From the IMG/VR virus record IMGVR_UViG_2874956758_000005: DNA of 40,694 nucleotides. One strand, 5' to 3'. This document shows, piece by piece, positions 4,147 through 39,276 of the stretch. Position 1 is the stretch's first letter, and each line of letters begins with the position of its first letter. The notes beneath the pieces were generated by a model. The model ran no database searches, was not told where the DNA came from, and saw only the letters and a list, made by a program, of their open reading frames with translations. Source of the stretch: a virus (Duplodnaviria > Heunggongvirae > Uroviricota > Caudoviricetes). Position numbers and translations under genes: made by a program.

Positions 4147-7100
4147 TCAACGAATACTGATGCCGGAAGCCGCTTTTTTGGTCACAATCACCGTACAGTC
4201 GGTGATATTGCCTGCCCCCTGATTGCCTTTCTGGAAAATCTTAAACTCCAGAGTGACGCTACCACCACCACTAGGCATATCAATAACTGCACTGTAACTA
4301 CCGGGAATGGCCCCTTTAGTTTCTCTGGATGCGATTAATACGCCGTTTTTGCGAACTTCAAAACCATAACCCGTGTATCGCGTGCCTCCTAGGTTATTTC
4401 CGCTCCCCGGATCGTCATACGCTATACCGTTAAAAATAATGGGCGGAATAATAATCTGGCGGTCAAAGTTATGATCATCGCTGATGGTGACTGTAACCGT
4501 ACCGTTTGGTGTTTCCGTGTTACCCCACGTACCGACTTTTTTCGGGAAGGCTTTTGATACAGCTTTAACGAAATCCCCTCTGACCTGGGTCGCCTCCAGC
4601 ATGCCCTTAATCGTACAGTTTTCATTTACCGTGACATTGTTGAGCGTCCCGGCGTTCGCATTCACACTGCCACTGATATCCGCATTTTTAGCGGTCAGCT
4701 TTCCGTCTGATGTCAGGGAAAATACCGGAGGACTGCCACCACTGGTAATGGTGGGGGCCGTCAGGCGCTTCAGGAACACGTCGTTCATGAATATCTGGTT
4801 GCCCTGCGCCACAAACATCGGCGTTTCATTCCCGTTTGCCGGGTCAATAAACGCGATACGGTTAGCGGCAACCAGAAACTGGCTCAGCTTGCCTTCCTCT
4901 GTGTCCTCCATGCTGAGGCCAATACCCGCGACATAATGTTTGCCGTCTTTGGTCTGCTCAATTTTGACGCCCCACATGGCATTCCATTTATCGTTAGCGT
5001 CCTTCCACTCTTTCGAAAACTCATCCAGTCTGCTGGCGTTATCCTCCGTCAGATCAACTTTTTCCAGCAGCTCTTTACCGAGATGGGATTCGGTTATCTT
5101 GCCTTTGAAAAAATCCAGGTAACCTTCCGCATCATCGCTCGCCCGACCGACGGCCTCCACGAATGCCGATTTGCCAACGGTGTTCACACTGCGGATATAA
5201 AAGTAATAATCATGGCCCGGTTTGATATTGATACTGGCGGCTATCCAGTACAGCCCCGTGCCAAGGTAGCGGGCTGTGGTTTCAACCTGCCTGATATCGG
5301 TAATCCGCGTTTCCGAGAACCAGAACTCAAACTGTACCGTCGGATCATAAACCGCAAGATGCGGCGTGGCAGTTATCTGAAAATAGCCCGGCGTCAGCTC
5401 AATCCGCGACGGCGCTGCCGGGGCGGCAATCCGGAACGATACCGACGCCGGATCGCCCTGCTGTCCCCGGGCATTTACCGCCCGGACCGTCAGCGTGTAA
5501 CGCCCCAGCGCCAGCTGCCTGAAGCGGTAAGTGGTTTCCGTCGTCCGGGCCGTGCTGACCAGCCGCTCACTGCCGTCATCGGCGGCCACGGTCAGGCGAA
5601 GCATAAAGCTCACACCCTTCACTACCTTCGGCGTGTCCCAGCGCGCCAGCACCTGATATTCCCCGCTGTCTGCGGTGACTTCGGCGGTCAGGTGCTGCAC
5701 CGCTGGCGGCGTGACACCATTCACCGTGCCGCTCTGGTCGCCGTCAAAGTACGCCCCGTTATCCACGATGGCCTCTTTTTCCGGTACATGCTGCACGGCG
5801 GTGATGGCATACGTGCCGTCGTCGTTCTCACGGATACTCACGCAGCGGAACAGGCGCTGGCGCAGCGTCGGCAGCTTCAGCCCCCACACGCTGTATTCAG
5901 CAACACCGTCAGGAACACGGCTCACTTTCACCTTCACGCCGTCGGTGACGGACTGAACCTCCACGCTGATCGGATTGCCACTTCCGTCAACCAGGCTTAT
6001 CAGCGTGGTACCGGAGGATGGCAGCGTGATTTCACGGTCGAGCGTCAGCGTCCGGGTCTGGCTGTTTACCGCCAGCACGCGCCCGCCGATGCTGATACCG
6101 GCATAGTCATCATCACAGATTTCAATGACATCGCCCGGCACATGGCGAAGCCCTTCTGCGCCCACGCTGAAGTCCACGGTCTGCGTTTCCAGCAGTTCTG
6201 TTTTAATCAGCCACAGCCCGGCGCGATGTGCCTGCCCCCGGCTGGTACAGCCAAAGGCATCCATTTTCGTGACGTTACGACCGTAACGGGCAATGGCCTG
6301 CGTATCCTCCACAAGCTCTGTCGCCGTCTCCCAGCCGTTATTCGGGTCAATCCAGTTCACCTCAACGGCATTATGGCGGTCCTTCAGGGCGCTGAAGCTG
6401 TAGCGGAACGGCGCACCATCATCCGGCATCACCACATTACTGCGGTTATAGGTCCACACCTTATCTGATGGCCGGTCCTGCACGAACGTCAGCGTCTGCC
6501 CGTTCCATACCGGCATACAGCGCATCGCCGAGCAGAAATCACTGAGCACATCCCACGCCTTGCGCTGTGTGGTCAGGTAAGCGTTACAGATGATGCGCGG
6601 CTCCGTGCCGCCAAAGCCATCCGGCACCGACTGGTCGCAGTACTGGCCGATGACATACAGCGCCCATTTATCCACATCTGCCGCACCAAGACGTTTCCCC
6701 ATGCCGTAGCGCGGGTGGGTCAGCATATCCCACAGACACCAGGCCATGTTGTTGCTGTATGCCGGTTTTAACGTTCCGTCCCAGATACCGCTGTATTGCC
6801 GCGTCTGCGGGTTATAATTCGACGGCACCTGCAGAATGCGCCCGCGAAGATGATAATTACGGCTCACCTGCTGGCTGCCGAACTGCTCCGAATCCACCTG
6901 CACGCCGACCAGTGCCGTGTTCGGGTAGCACTGTTTCACATCGATGATTTCGGTGTATGACGACCAGAGCGTTTTGTTCTGCAGCTGGTCTGTGGTGCTG
7001 TCCGGCGTCATTCTGCGCATCCGGATATTAAACGGGCGCGGCGGCAGGTTATCCACCACCACCGAGGCCAGATACTGCGAGGTGGTTTTGCCCTTAATGG

Positions 7101-34789: not shown

Positions 34790-34918
34790 ATGGATTTCGA
34801 CACAATCATGGAAAAGGCTTACGAAGAATACTTCGAAGGCCTTGCCGAAGGCGAAGAAGCTCTCAGCTTCAGTGAGTTTAAACAGGCGCTTTCCAGCTCG
34901 GCAAAATCTAACGGCTGA
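34790..34918 (+). CDS. small acidic protein (42 aa), YdaG-like
   Basis: Unannotated ATG ORF MDFDTIMEKAYEEYFEGLAEGEEALSFSEFKQALSSSAKSNG; GGTGAG RBS; starts 2 nt after previous stop. Confidence 0.45.
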   Translation: MDFDTIMEKAYEEYFEGLAEGEEALSFSEFKQALSSSAKSNG

Positions 34919-34947
34919 TAAGCGAAGCAGCACCGCGAGGAATCAGT

Positions 34948-35166
34948 ATGCAGAAACGAGAACCCGTCATCATCGCGCCAGACTATACCGATGATGAACT
35001 TTATGAGTGGATGCACCAGAAAATTAAGGCTGCGCAGGACCTGAAATGGGCCAATGAAGCCAGGGCTAAGCAGGCTGAAAATCTGTCCGCTCTGGAGCAG
35101 GATATCACCAATCTGGAAAAAGCAGCGGCATTAAGCATTGCCAGAATGATTACATACCCACGTTAA
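34948..35166 (+). CDS. hypothetical protein (72 aa)
   Basis: ATG with AGGAAT upstream; helical charged sequence. Confidence 0.45.
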   Translation: MQKREPVIIAPDYTDDELYEWMHQKIKAAQDLKWANEARAKQAENLSALEQDITNLEKAAALSIARMITYPR

Positions 35167-35188
35167 TGGTTAACCAACGAGGCTAATA

Positions 35189-35596
35189 ATGGAATTTAAA
35201 GATTTACCAAAAGAAATCCAGACAATTGCTGCAACGACTCTCGGTGATAGTCTGGTGAAAATTGACCCGGCATACACCAAAAAAGAAACCATCGATAATA
35301 TGGTTCGTAATGTGCGCAATGCTTTTTCTGGGCTATATGGTTCTGATAATCAAAAGCAGGAAAGCGATGTTAATGAACGGGTAATTTCTGTTTGCGTGAA
35401 TGGCCATGTTCTTTCATCAATCAAAACAGAAACAGCGACAGTCTTCGATTGCCTTTGCATTGTACAGAGCCTTGTTGATGCCCTGTTTCGTTCAGTGAAT
35501 TTAGAAAATGATGCAAATCTGCGAGGGCGCACAATAGCACATCCATATGCACATACTTTAGGCTCTGTGGATATCAAAGATCCCACAAATCTTTAA
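35189..35596 (+). CDS. hypothetical protein (135 aa)
   Basis: ATG with GAGG upstream; no recognisable motif. Confidence 0.5.
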   Translation: MEFKDLPKEIQTIAATTLGDSLVKIDPAYTKKETIDNMVRNVRNAFSGLYGSDNQKQESDVNERVISVCVNGHVLSSIKTETATVFDCLCIVQSLVDALFRSVNLENDANLRGRTIAHPYAHTLGSVDIKDPTNL

Positions 35597-35807
35597 TGAA
35601 ATAGTTAACGCGAATTGTACTTGCTCTTTCAGTTGCTTTCAGAATACGCGTTGAAACTGCTGGCGGTAATTTGGTATTCCATTTATTAAAATCATGCCCG
35701 GGAAAGTACTCTTCGAAAATACTTTTAACTGCAGACTCGCCTATTGAAATGCTGCTTACCATGCGATTTTGATAAAGGCATTTAGCAATAAGAGTTGATT
35801 TTAACAT
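35574..35807 (-). CDS. hypothetical protein (77 aa), opposite strand to the surrounding operon
   Basis: ATG 35807 preceded by strong RBS AGGAGGG; 3' end overlaps the 135-aa gene by 23 nt convergently. Confidence 0.45.
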   Translation of the reverse strand: MLKSTLIAKCLYQNRMVSSISIGESAVKSIFEEYFPGHDFNKWNTKLPPAVSTRILKATERASTIRVNYFIKDLWDL

Positions 35808-36155
35808 TCACCCTCCTGAGGGTTGGTAATTAAGGAGTTCTCCACGGGTGAGGTGGAGTGCGTGCGCCGGACACGGGTGAGCATCCGGCACTGACAGTTT
35901 ACTGAAAGGATATGTCCCTGAAAAGTCAGGGCATAACGCGAAAGCGCACGGCGAGGCTGTTAGTTCATAAATGGTCTGTCGTTAAATTTTCGTCGACCGT
36001 GCGCTTCCGGTTGTGGCAATCCGCGAAATGGCGCGGCGGTAAGTATGGCGGGGTTATTCCTTCCCCGTTGAGGACACCGGGTTGTCAGGTTGACCATACG
36101 CTTAAGTGACAACCCCGCTGCAACGCCCTCTGTTATCAATTTTCTGGTGACGTTT

Positions 36156-36200
36156 GGCGGTATCAGTTTTACTCCGTGACTGCTCTGCCGCCCTTTTTAA
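36156..36200 (+). terminator. candidate intrinsic terminator
   Basis: GGCGG...CCGCC imperfect hairpin followed by CTTTTTAAA. Confidence 0.4.
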
Positions 36201-36367
36201 AGTGAATTTTGTGATGTGGTGAATGCGGCTGAGCGCACGCGGAACAGTTAAAACCGAAAACAGTGTTATGGGTGGATTCTCTGTATCCGGCGTTAATTGT
36301 TAACTGGTTAACGTCACCTGGAAGCACCAGGCACCGCATCACAAAACTCATTGTTGAGGGCGCGATA

Positions 36368-36556
36368 ATGAAAACGTTATTACCAAACGTTAATACGTCT
36401 GAAGGTTGTTTTGAAATTGGTGTCACTATCAGTAATCCTGTATTCACTGAAGAGGCCATTAACAAAAGAAAACACGAACGGGAGTTATTAAATAAAGTAT
36501 GCATTGTTTCAATGCTGGCCCGTTTACGTCTGATGCCAAAAGGATGTGCACAATGA
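36368..36556 (+). CDS. hypothetical small protein (62 aa)
   Basis: ATG 36368 with GAGGG RBS; stop overlaps next start (ATGA). Confidence 0.4.
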   Translation: MKTLLPNVNTSEGCFEIGVTISNPVFTEEAINKRKHERELLNKVCIVSMLARLRLMPKGCAQ

Positions 36557-36741
36557 ATCCAGTATTTGCACTTATTCTGACGGTTTTTCTTGTTTCCGGA
36601 GAGCCAGTTGATATTGCAGTCAGTGTTCACAGAACAATGCAGGAATGTATGGCCGCAGCAACCGAACAGAAAATTCCAGGCAACTGTTATCCGGTCGATA
36701 AAGTTATTCACCAGGATAACGAAATCCCGGCAGGATTTTAA
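36553..36741 (+). CDS. small protein with signal-peptide-like N-terminus (62 aa)
   Basis: ATG 36553 with AAGGA 8 nt upstream; MNPVFALILTVFLVSGEPVD..., two Cys. Confidence 0.45.
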   Translation: MNPVFALILTVFLVSGEPVDIAVSVHRTMQECMAAATEQKIPGNCYPVDKVIHQDNEIPAGF

Positions 36742-36834
36742 AACAGCACCGTAATAAATATCCAGTTTCATTCTTATATGTCAGCAATGGCAGAGATTTG
36801 TTCACCCTTAAATCTGTGATGAGGTTTATCAATA

Positions 36835-39276
36835 ATGAGCACTGATAAAGAAGAATTTGCACTATATTGCGAAGCAAAAAATGACAAAGTAAGAAAACGC
36901 CTGGGAATTAAAGGTGGTTTTTACTGGACTACAGCAAAAAAATTATCTGTTGCAATCTCCCGCTGCATTACCGCAATGGATGACAACGATTATGATGAAG
37001 ACGACTTTAAAAAACCCGTCCGCGTCAATTTGCCCGTTGTTGACGACCTTCCGCCAGAAGGCGTGTTTGATACTGAATTCTGCAACCGCTATGAAAAAGG
37101 CGGGAAAGATGGCATCACAATGACATTTATCGGCCCTTCCCCCTCTGTTCAGGACAAACCAGCCAGCACTGACAATACCAACATCAACGGCGAAGACATG
37201 ACTGAGATTGAGGAGAGCATGCTTCTGCCTGTCTCCGGTCAGGAACTGCCCATTCGTTGGCTTGCTCAACACGGCAGCGAAAAACCAGTAACGCACGTTT
37301 CACGCGACGAACTCCAGGCATTACACATTGCACGGGCTGAAGAACTACCGGCTGTTACTGCCCTGGCTATTTCGCATAAAACCAGTCTGCTCGACTCGCT
37401 GGAGATTCGCGACCTCCACAAACTGGTTCGTGACACTGACAAAGTTTTCCCTAATCCTGGTAATTCAGACCTGGGACTAATAACTGCTTTTTTCGAAGCA
37501 TACCTGGACGCTGACTACACTGATCGGGGTCTGCTGACAAAAGAGTGGATGAAAGGAAATCGTGTTTCACGCATCACCCGCACGGCTTCCGGTGCTAATG
37601 CTGGCGGTGGGAACAAAACCGATCGCAATCCGAATTTAGTACACACCCTCGACACACTGGATGTGGAGATTGCAGCAGCCACACTTCCGATGGATTTTAA
37701 TATTTATGAAATTCCGGGCAGCGTTTATCGTCGCGCAAAAGAAGTAGTTCTGAACAAAGAAAGTCCGTTCAAAGAATGGTCCGCAGCACTTCGTGCAACC
37801 CCGGGTATTCTGGACTATTCCCGCGCCGCTATTTTTGCACTTATCCGAAGCGCACACCCTGAATTCTATCACTACCCGGGACGCCTTCAGGGGTATATCA
37901 ACGCCTATTTGACGGAAACTGATCACGAGAACCCCAGCAAGGAAACTCTCACAGCTGCCCGGCATACGCCGGAAAAAGATATCCTGGAAGAAATTAACCG
38001 CGAGGTGGTTACTGAGCGTGAAACAGAAGAAGAAAAACCACAACCATCTGACGCAATGGCAGGTGAACAGGCAACAACTGAAACAATGGAACCGGATACA
38101 ACTGAACATGGCCAGAACGCGCAGTCGCTGGATGCTCAGTCGCAGGTGAGTTCCGCTAACCAAGTAAAAGTCACCGCTGACGAAGTAAACAAAATTATGC
38201 AGGCAGCCAATATCAGCCAGCCTGACGCCGATAAGTTACTTGCTGTATCGCGTGGTGAATTTGTTGAGGGGATTAGCGACCCTAATGATCCGAAATGGGT
38301 TAAGGGGATCCAGACCCGCGATTCTGTGAACCAGAACCAGCAAGAAACGGAACAGAACGACCAGAAAGCGGAACAAAACAGCCCAAATACACAACAAAAC
38401 GAGCCAGAAACGAAACAACCTGAACCAGTAGTGCAACAGGAACCGGAAAAGATCTGCACCGCCTGCGGTCAGAGCGGTGGCGGCAACTGCCCTGATTGTG
38501 GTGCGGTGATGGGTGACGCAACATACCAGGAAATATTCGATGGAGAGAATCAGCCTGAAGTTCAGGAAAATGATCCGGAGGAAATGGAAGGCACTGCGCA
38601 TCAGCACAAGGAGAACACTGGCGGCAATCAGCATCATGCCAGCGATAGTGAAACTGGCGAGGCGTCAGATCCCTTAATTAAGGCGAACGGTCATCATAAT
38701 CTCACATCCACCAGCAGAGCGGGGATTCATCTGATGATCGACCTTGAAACCATGGGAAAAAATCCCGATGCCCCGATTATCTCAATAGGTGCAATATTTT
38801 TCGATCCGCAAACCGGAGATATGGGACCGGAATTTAGTAAGACTATCGATCTGGAAACTGCTGGCGGAGTCATTGATCGGGACACCATTAAATGGTGGCT
38901 TAAACAATCACGCGAAGCGCAATCTGCCATTATGACCGATGAAATCCCGTTAGATGATGCACTGTTACAATTGCGGGAATTTATCGACGAAAACTCCGGT
39001 GAATTTTTTGTTCAGGTCTGGGGAAATGGAGCCAACTTCGACAACACGATTTTGCGCCGTTCATACGAACGGCAGGGGATCCCCTGCCCGTGGCGTTACT
39101 ACAACGATCGCGATGTACGCACAATCGTTGAGCTGGGGAAAGCCATAGACTTCGATGCCAGAACGGCTATTCCATTCGAAGGTGAGCGCCATAATGCACT
39201 TGATGACGCCCGTTACCAGGCAAAATACGTTTCAGTTATCTGGCAAAAACTGATCCCGAGTCAGGCTGATTTTTAA
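36835..39276 (+). CDS. exodeoxyribonuclease VIII (RecE)-like protein with C-terminal DEDDh 3'-5' exonuclease domain
   Basis: 813-aa ORF; N-terminal half RecE-like (…NGEDMTEIEESMLLPVSGQELPIRWLAQHGSEKPVTHVSRDELQALHIARAEELPAV…); central CxxC-x7-CxxC; C-terminus has MIDLET..., GNGANFDNT..., HNALDDARYQ. Confidence 0.75.
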   Translation: MSTDKEEFALYCEAKNDKVRKRLGIKGGFYWTTAKKLSVAISRCITAMDDNDYDEDDFKKPVRVNLPVVDDLPPEGVFDTEFCNRYEKGGKDGITMTFIGPSPSVQDKPASTDNTNINGEDMTEIEESMLLPVSGQELPIRWLAQHGSEKPVTHVSRDELQALHIARAEELPAVTALAISHKTSLLDSLEIRDLHKLVRDTDKVFPNPGNSDLGLITAFFEAYLDADYTDRGLLTKEWMKGNRVSRITRTASGANAGGGNKTDRNPNLVHTLDTLDVEIAAATLPMDFNIYEIPGSVYRRAKEVVLNKESPFKEWSAALRATPGILDYSRAAIFALIRSAHPEFYHYPGRLQGYINAYLTETDHENPSKETLTAARHTPEKDILEEINREVVTERETEEEKPQPSDAMAGEQATTETMEPDTTEHGQNAQSLDAQSQVSSANQVKVTADEVNKIMQAANISQPDADKLLAVSRGEFVEGISDPNDPKWVKGIQTRDSVNQNQQETEQNDQKAEQNSPNTQQNEPETKQPEPVVQQEPEKICTACGQSGGGNCPDCGAVMGDATYQEIFDGENQPEVQENDPEEMEGTAHQHKENTGGNQHHASDSETGEASDPLIKANGHHNLTSTSRAGIHLMIDLETMGKNPDAPIISIGAIFFDPQTGDMGPEFSKTIDLETAGGVIDRDTIKWWLKQSREAQSAIMTDEIPLDDALLQLREFIDENSGEFFVQVWGNGANFDNTILRRSYERQGIPCPWRYYNDRDVRTIVELGKAIDFDARTAIPFEGERHNALDDARYQAKYVSVIWQKLIPSQADF

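Follow-up and report, generated by a model that had tools for sequence, protein, structure and literature searches.

The dicF locus in the window

The segment considered here spans positions 35808-36367 (+ strand) of a 40,694-nucleotide (nt) stretch of Caudoviricetes DNA (IMG/VR record IMGVR_UViG_2874956758_000005); this whole stretch is referred to below as the window. The segment corresponds to the ydfC–dicF–dicB untranslated region of a Qin/PPompW-type lambdoid prophage and, in identity and anatomy, is very probably the untranslated region of the dicBF (early-left) operon that holds the small RNA DicF. Among bacterial small RNAs, dicF is one of those known longest. The dicF locus, which forms the core of the finding, is already known and not novel; the added value lies in a domain upstream of DicF, denoted module B (36010-36124, +), which is present in ~80% of the complete Escherichia coli genomes and unannotated in all of them.

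Positions 35500-36700 are 100% identical to E. coli FDAARGOS_943, in which the flanks are annotated in RefSeq as ydfB, ydfC, dicB and DUF1482, and this sequence is present in 4739 of the 5426 complete E. coli genomes; the spacer is found in 4429 of the 5426 and annotated in none. Homology to the Qin prophage of E. coli K-12 begins at ~35820 and extends with ~95% identity across the ydfC–dicF–dicB interval. The dicBF operon of Qin has ydfC on the 5' side, dicB on the 3' side and an identical DicF, and its 340-nt spacer and dicF-dicB leader are ~95% identical to those described here. The present prophage differs in being a complete one of the PPompW type, with exonuclease, xis and int genes downstream and two extra genes after ydfC.

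A scan of positions 34800-37200 against Rfam (expectation value E ≤ 10) yields two meaningful matches, DicF and a sub-threshold STnc100, and no match in 35808-36141. DicF (36142-36198, +) consists of the seed region, a Rho-independent terminator hairpin (36156-36193) and a U-run (36194-36198); the RF00039 model matches 36142-36193 over model positions 1-52 of 52, scoring 76.7 bits (gathering score 48; E = 1.4e-16). Membership in the DicF family is indicated by this score above the gathering value, by the location between ydfC and dicB in an operon repressed by a DicA-type repressor, and by the Rho-independent terminator. The initial annotation, made from the sequence alone, had pointed to a hairpin followed by a T-run and suggested a small RNA, possibly an antisense regulator, to be sought by covariance search. 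The hairpin and T-run (36156-36198) are indeed the terminator of the antisense regulator DicF, the covariance-model match settled the identity, and the cue thus worked, in that it re-discovers the dicF locus. The same annotation had placed the interval in a Rac-type prophage with kil/sieB-type genes; a kil-type gene does lie downstream (dicB starts at 36368), but the arrangement is that of Qin dicBF and not of the Rac kil/sieB interval.

The dicF gene lies in the long untranslated region of the dicBF operon; the 5' end of DicF depends on RNase E and its 3' end is generated by the terminator or by RNase III, which makes a 72-nt form ending ~19 nt past the terminator (PMC5069750). When the DicA-type repressor is lost, the operon is transcribed and some polymerases stop at the DicF terminator; the RNase E cut then gives the 53-nt Hfq-binding DicF that represses ftsZ and other messenger RNAs, and the read-through RNA is cut by RNase III (the 72-nt form) and continues to dicB. 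In the window, the A/U-rich linker GCCCUCUGUUAUCAA (36125-36141, +), which ends at the 5' end of DicF as positioned by the Rfam match, is presumed to be the RNase E entry region, where the cleavage would occur. Hfq enrichment upstream of dicF and a 190-nt DicF precursor have been reported, the length of the precursor coming through a secondary citation. Counting 190 nt back from the terminator end at 36198 leads to ~36009, the start of P0, the closing helix of module B, so that module B and DicF together match the published precursor, with module B as its 5' part. A promoter scan for an internal sigma-70 promoter that would start the 190-nt RNA came out empty; a weak TTAAAT occurs at 35982-35987 with no decent -35 element.

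Module B: fold and sequence comparison

Module B is a closed multi-helix RNA domain. The closing helix P0 (36010-36017/36117-36124, +), confined to the lambdoid lineages, surrounds H1 (36021-36025/36032-36036, +; CCGCG/CGCGG), helix P2 (36037-36040/36076-36079, +; CGGU/ACCG), the variable hairpin H2 with a U/C-rich loop (36049-36053/36063-36067, +) and H3 (36080-36087/36107-36114, +; GGUUGUCA/UGACAACC). The 19-nt, nearly invariant loop of H3, GGUUGA-CCAUAC-GCUUAAG, contains the 3' strand of a pseudoknot, CCAUAC (36094-36099, +), the partner of which, GUAUGG (36043-36048, +), is located in the junction between P2 and H2. The minimum free energy structure of module B reproduces the helices, the covariance model built for the domain (R1) scores 136.5 bits in the window, and the frequent G·U pairs assign the structure to the + strand.

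The case for this fold is comparative. The 122 viral contigs used, together with the phages recovered by BLAST, yielded 70 distinct module B sequences, and in their MAFFT alignment 95.1% of the cells are paired, compared with 32-52% when the partners are slid; six pairs are changed on both sides. With 72 distinct sequences, the paired fraction is 96.4% and seven pairs are changed on both sides, compared with 2.5 ± 1.2 in shuffles (0 of 500 reach this number). More distant homologues (L256-L262; L numbers are our labels for loci) were obtained by pattern scans that excluded the common base at the pseudoknot positions and were placed by BLAST on 87-99-kilobase (kb) non-mobilizable P1-like plasmids of Citrobacter, Enterobacter and Pantoea. 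In the test that takes in these homologues, a structure-blind alignment of 20 representatives, 93% of the cells are paired (26-46% when slid), 34 cells are changed on both sides as opposed to 10.6 ± 2.4 in shuffles (again, 0 of 500 reach it), and the covariation score is 0.305, compared with 0.121 ± 0.015 for the shuffled and ≤0.085 for the slid alignments.

The pseudoknot strands (5'/3') read UAUGG/CCAUA in the window, CAUGG/CCAUG in P1, ACUGG/CCAGU in L256, UCUGG/CCAGA in L258 and L265, and UUUGG/CCAAU, with one U·U, in L263 from Citrobacter; pair 31-91 occurs as A-U, C-G and U-A, and pair 30-92 as U-A, C-G, A-U and U·G. The H3 stem is wholly replaced in the distant homologues (GCGGCCA/UGGCCGC or GCGGACA/UGUCCGC), and the 3' strand of P0 comes in the variants GCUGCAAC, GCUACAAC, GCCACAAC and ACCACAAC, with pairing kept in all. 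The H2 loops vary and always hold UCCUU, CUCC or UCUUU-type tracts. The unpaired bases of the H3 loop are invariant across the lambdoid and P1 groups and, as far as the alignments extend, almost invariant from the E. coli lambdoid prophages to the Pantoea phage-plasmids. Judged by the compensatory changes, which support it well, module B is a real structured RNA with a pseudoknot.

No Rfam family matches module B at E ≤ 10; a resemblance to 5S ribosomal RNA, perceived by eye only, has no counterpart among the 5S models in the Rfam scan. A full-text search found no paper printing the core sequences and none joining DicF with a pseudoknot, antitermination or covariation, with the limit that the older DicF and P1 literature may still describe module B. 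The domain is, apparently, an uncatalogued structured RNA that is widespread in phages and phage-plasmids. A search for the 14-base pattern AGGTTGACCATNCGC over 596 gigabases of contigs returned mostly chance matches, the only real one among the matches listed coming from E. albertii (L167).

Contexts and possible roles of module B

The spacer is modular. By BLAST, positions 36010-36132 alone recur in Stx2c phages, cdtI, 2H10, Salmonella phage F1055 and pPE4, and positions 36021-36117 recur in P1, P7 and related phage-plasmids. Across the phage groups examined, module B precedes small-RNA or transfer RNA (tRNA) genes. In all 54 distinct downstream versions of the lambdoid and P1 types, a lineage-specific sequence of 15-60 nt leads to a U-rich stretch and then to an intrinsic terminator; the terminators differ (examples are GGCGGUAUCAG, GCCCAUC and GUCGGCGUC), whereas module B does not change. 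In an Stx2c phage the domain directly follows the repressor gene, in pPE4 it directly follows dicA, and in the Citrobacter and Pantoea phage-plasmids a tRNA begins 25-35 nt after it.

In P1, the homologue of module B carries the label 'dicF-like region' (NC_005856: 68791-68892) and lies downstream of the C1-controlled ban promoter. Its start is ~45 nt beyond the -10 element of P1ban and the C1 operators, both of which are annotated. The P1 copy shares H1, P2, the pseudoknot, H2 and H3, with compensatory changes, and is likewise followed by a hairpin and intrinsic terminator, but it lacks P0, has almost no single-stranded seed and is followed by tRNAs and ban rather than by dicB. Because the seed is almost missing, there is no obvious DicF-type base-pairing RNA in this region. 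The order after module B is terminator, tRNA-Asn, tRNA-Thr, tciABC, a third tRNA annotated as tRNA-Ile(CAU), and ban.

The slot directly downstream of module B, or of the place that it would occupy, holds at least 10 different seed/terminator versions of DicF-like RNAs, with differing seeds and terminator stems (loci L005, L006, L008, L029, L034, L040, L063, L099, L009 and L252). The Rfam DicF model recognizes only the K-12 type plus, weakly, the versions of phiSTEC1589 and Rac-SA53. These RNAs look like a family with exchangeable seeds behind a constant leader. Three prophages or phages, phiSTEC1589, POCJ13 and Rac-SA53, have DicF-like RNAs with intact terminators and no intact module B, so the domain is not needed to make the small RNA. 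Both phiSTEC1589 and POCJ13 encode N, and POCJ13 retains only a 3' remnant of module B; in the module-less phiSTEC1589 and Rac-SA53, P0 is a plain hairpin, GGUUGU-GAAUA-ACAAC. A separate observation concerns Aeromonas phage AP1, in which a 254-kb record (MT713136.1) contains at 249906-249975 a 70-nt sequence with 98.6% identity to E. coli DicF, either an odd transfer or a contamination.

Several further elements were noticed around the copies of module B. In P1-like phage-plasmid contigs, RprA-like matches of 63.4 bits (L257 1163-1265, -) and 46.9 bits (L256 2944-3046, +), both under the gathering score of 70, follow the module B homologue at a distance of 185-600 nt (185 nt in L257). They may represent copies, or mimics, of a small RNA of the core genome that the phage-plasmids carry. 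A tRNA with a UUA anticodon, reported by ARAGORN as 'tRNA-Stop', is located ~830 nt downstream of module B (L258 6031-6114, +; L261 4792-4875, -) and looks like an ochre suppressor. Immediately after module B, L261 has a 61-nt match to the tRNA model (5592-5652, -), seemingly without a full anticodon arm. The gene just 5' of module B in the Pantoea-type phage-plasmids (L265 1421-2710, +; L258 3520-4809, +) encodes a ~429-amino acid (aa) protein whose annotation includes an RNA polymerase alpha C-terminal domain, which may be relevant to a transcription-related role of module B. The motif CAGGCAYACAACRNNGARRGCA, often after CCACC..GCCU..GUGG, recurs in several lambdoid lineages on the 5' side of module B or of the small RNA itself (L252 3395-3450; L008 ~2380-2440; upstream of module B in L040, L005 and L063) and may be another conserved leader module.

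It is a possibility, somewhat short of an even chance, that module B represents an undescribed class of phage RNA: a pseudoknotted leader of lambdoid phages and P1-like phage-plasmids in Enterobacterales that stands ahead of DicF-family RNAs, an RprA-like RNA and tRNA arrays and acts without a phage protein, perhaps as a new kind of cis antiterminator or anti-Rho element, perhaps as a host-factor decoy. Under the mechanism proposed, module B would act in cis and on the polymerase that transcribes it, in functional analogy to HK022 put or to the ribosomal RNA (rrn) leader, and transcription would thereby continue past the small-RNA terminator and through long untranslated, Rho-prone stretches of RNA genes. 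That module B is a cis-acting leader which keeps RNA polymerase elongating through the terminator and the Rho-prone untranslated RNA genes is the reading ranked highest here, though a tentative and rather doubtful one. Were module B to control elongation or processing, three points would be explained: the passage of N-less early operons beyond the DicF terminator to dicB, the exonuclease, xis and int; transcription in P1 from the ban promoter across a largely untranslated leader of 2.6 kb; and the ability of DicF-type RNAs to exchange seeds behind an unchanged 5' module. Module B would then also be a compact, portable RNA part for synthetic biology.

The analogy with put is one of position. 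The putL and putR elements of HK022 are compact cis-acting processive antiterminators of ~70 nt, with two stem-loops and a triplex (PMC9378689). Like module B, they lie 3' of early promoters and 5' of terminators in phages without a working N, a functional analogy only; this put-like position, between an early promoter and the first terminators, is found in P1, the Stx2c phage and pPE4. The put RNA is smaller and differently built, module B having ~100-115 nt, four or five helices and a pseudoknot, and it is a feature of put that it binds the beta' zinc-binding domain of RNA polymerase and suppresses pausing and termination in cis. Homology of the two was rejected, as covariance model R1 has no match in the whole HK022 genome at E ≤ 10. 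The rrn leader (boxB-boxA-boxC) resembles module B in heading a long untranslated transcription unit of RNA genes, a likeness not accompanied by any demonstrated homology of sequence or structure. As a lead only, the H2 loop tracts ACUCUUU, CUCCUU and UCUUUA resemble by eye the boxA core, CUCUUU.

Three features may speak, by analogy and with a good deal of doubt, for the cis-elongation role: module B does not overlap the terminators, it occupies the put-like position, and two N-encoding phages lack an intact copy. The variable spacer between module B and the terminator argues for action through the polymerase and against a classical overlapping riboswitch platform. The stronger proposition that module B replaces N was not retained, with the two N-encoding phages without an intact module B on one side but Rac-SA53 without both on the other, and is a hint at most.

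Some observations limit the structural evidence, and others weigh against the elongation role. Taken alone, module B has a weak thermodynamic z score (-1.28), no pair of H1 is changed on both sides, and P2 is down to 2-3 pairs in the distant group; the compensatory changes go back to a few lineages each, which makes the independent events few. The match to the 190-nt precursor rests on a figure taken from a secondary citation. As regards the role, no further strong intrinsic terminators were found downstream in the window, no obvious intrinsic terminator comes right after module B in the Citrobacter, Enterobacter and Pantoea homologues, and the search of the HK022 genome with the module B model was, as said, empty. 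Finally, Rac-SA53 has a DicF-like RNA and terminator upstream of kilR-recE without module B or an annotated N, so read-through does not strictly need the domain.

Other roles have to be set against this one. Module B could be a maturation or stability domain of the small-RNA precursor, which by its closed 5' fold protects the transcript and positions RNase E (or RNase P), so that the seed-plus-terminator unit, or a tRNA, leaves with a defined 5' end; this is unlikely. In keeping with such a role, the 5' end of DicF is RNase E-dependent and located 17 nt after P0, the precursor has been reported, as has Hfq enrichment upstream of dicF, and module B always precedes stable RNA genes; yet the DicF-like RNAs of phiSTEC1589, POCJ13 and Rac-SA53 keep intact terminators and lack module B, near-invariant unpaired bases and a pseudoknot conserved from E. 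coli to Pantoea would be superfluous in a mere protective fold, and neither ARAGORN nor the Rfam tRNA model detects anything tRNA-like. An autonomous trans-acting RNA is improbable to a similar degree; it might sequester a protein as a sponge or decoy, counter host defences or regulate through its pyrimidine-rich, anti-Shine-Dalgarno-like H2 loop, and would merely be co-transcribed with small RNAs and tRNAs. The closure of module B by P0 into a self-contained unit, its replacement at the same site by the simple hairpin in module-less phages as if it were a cassette, the constant UCCUU, CUCC or UCUUU-type tracts of the H2 loops and the location in early, accessory phage regions would all suit this possibility; however, none of the copies seen stands alone between a promoter and a terminator of its own, and module B is always inside a longer sense transcript.

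Much less probable is a riboswitch-type sensor in which a ligand sets the balance between termination (DicF release) and read-through (dicB). The compact pseudoknotted fold with invariant unpaired bases and the intrinsic terminator that follows in the lambdoid and P1 groups are what such a sensor would have, but the 15-60-nt spacer is unrelated, lineage-specific sequence with no conserved alternative pairing to the terminators, the distant homologues are followed by a tRNA and not by a terminator, no Rfam riboswitch matches, and an aptamer overlapping an expression platform through mutually exclusive pairing is not seen. Least credible, and very nearly negligible, is the view that the interval is a decayed protein gene, or that it mainly provides the promoter and leader for an antisense RNA or for the 77-aa gene on the minus strand (35574-35807). 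That gene, with its strong Shine-Dalgarno sequence, starts at 35807, which implies a promoter in module A (the 5' part of the spacer) or beyond, the minus strand folds at z = -3.56, and some phage records annotate a 'hypothetical protein' across the region. Against this, there is no minus-strand promoter match in 35808-36200, the G·U pairs of module B would become A·C mismatches on the minus strand, K-12 and most homologues retain the spacer without the 77-aa gene, and there is no conserved reading frame and no Pfam match. The absence of a convincing open reading frame (ORF), observed in the initial annotation, thus extends to the homologues: among the 70 distinct sequences the open frames range from 34 to 263 aa and none is common, which disposes of the decayed gene that the annotation had offered as an alternative to a small RNA.

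A protein gene or pseudogene had also been considered directly and was rejected on the same lack of a common frame, on lengths of module B (107-115 nt) that differ by non-multiples of three, and on the lack of a Pfam match for the two local ORFs of the interval (four ORFs were searched in all). A tRNA-like element was discarded as well, with no ARAGORN gene in 35500-36500 and no Rfam tRNA match at E ≤ 10. A mini-ORF, AUG GCG CGG CGG UAA (36029-36043), within H1/P2 of module B is shared by the lambdoid copies, absent from P1 (ACAGGCG) and probably incidental.

Module A, the dicB leader and neighboring genes

The 5' part of the spacer, module A (35820-36008, +), is GC-rich, ~95% identical to the K-12 ydfC-dicF spacer, and contains the hairpins that the initial annotation gave as evidence for a structured RNA. 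The hairpins of module A are CUCCAC/GUGGAG (35840-35858), GCCGGA/UCCGGC (35867-35889, with arms at 35867-35872 and 35884-35889), CCCUGA/UCAGGG (35916-35931) and CGC-GAAA-GCG (35938-35947). The motifs had been read correctly, including CGTGCGC at 35860-35866, with two misplaced by 1-5 nt: GCGCACG is at 35944-35950 and not 35945-35951, and CCCTGA-AAAG-TCAGGG, put at 35919-35936, is at 35916-35931. The proposed long-range pairing is ambiguous, because GCGCACG has two equally good CGUGCGC partners (35860-35866 and 35999-36005), and the minimum free energy structure of the whole region pairs it with the downstream copy, not with the one chosen in the annotation. As a selected structure, the nested hairpins fare poorly: module A folds at z = -1.63, with 14 of 200 shuffles as stable, and no compensatory change was found among its 34 distinct variants. 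Only ~10-12 of 34 distinct homologues have the CCCUGA/UCAGGG hairpin intact; in K-12, as in the majority, the 3' arm reads UCAGAC. Covariation was discarded as support for module A, given the low diversity and one hairpin that is mostly broken. Module A is complete in only 46 of the 122 loci that carry module B and is otherwise truncated or absent. The alignment of homologues that the annotation had called for thus reveals compensatory changes in module B and none in the hairpins it had relied on: module A is the least supported part, and module B with its pseudoknot was overlooked.

The dicF-dicB leader (36199-36367, +) adopts an STnc100/PasD-like multi-branch fold closed by a 15-bp stem (36207-36221/36332-36346, +), and its final hairpin (36348-36371, +) covers the Shine-Dalgarno sequence and AUG of dicB. 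Positions 36194-36372 fold at z = -4.30, with none of 200 shuffles as stable. The end of the 72-nt DicF falls in the 15-bp stem, which would then be the RNase III site. The STnc100 model (RF02076) matches 36205-36345 with 36.5 bits, below the gathering score of 47 (E = 9.4e-6); despite this sub-threshold score, the leader aligns to model positions 21-154, the outer helix included. STnc100, PasD and EcOnc13 are stand-alone prophage small RNAs, whereas the element in the window is a leader within an operon, with the ribosome-binding site of dicB at its end. A kinship of PasD and STnc100 has been reported (bioRxiv 10.64898/2026.05.13.724894), and among the Pas RNAs only PasD/STnc100 relates to the dicB leader. 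The Pas small RNAs were rejected as relatives of the module B units, PasA being 85 nt long, on the opposite strand and different in sequence.

STnc100-like matches are also present ahead of kil (pPE4, phiSTEC1589, Rac-SA53) and, in P1, ahead of tciA (L004 3842-3961, +; 33.4 bits). Apart from the inserted tRNAs, the leader of the P1 ban operon has the same arrangement as the lambdoid one: module B, terminator, STnc100-like leader, then a gene of the division-inhibitor type. In an Stx2c phage (L005 39-227, -), a C4 antisense RNA (80.1 bits) lies beside isrK (60.1 bits) near the immunity region.

Upstream of the interval, ydfA, ydfB and ydfC are the first genes of the region, all on the + strand, and ydfC (34948-35166, +) is the last K-12-type gene 5' of the untranslated region. 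The first translated gene on the 3' side is dicB (36368-36556, +), a cell-division inhibitor identified by its RefSeq annotation and ORF translation; 3' of it follow a DUF1482/ydfD-type gene, an 813-aa exonuclease gene, and then xis and int. Compared with K-12 Qin, two convergent ORFs that overlap by 23 nt are inserted between ydfC and the dicF spacer. They encode proteins of 135 aa (35189-35596, +; phrog_1363) and 77 aa (35574-35807, -; phrog_10348), neither with a Pfam match. The same pair is present in the O157 PPompW prophage, and in Rac-SA53 an unrelated 77-aa minus-strand gene (rac10) occupies the corresponding position. The 135-aa/77-aa pair may be an accessory gene ('moron') that is expressed in the lysogen.

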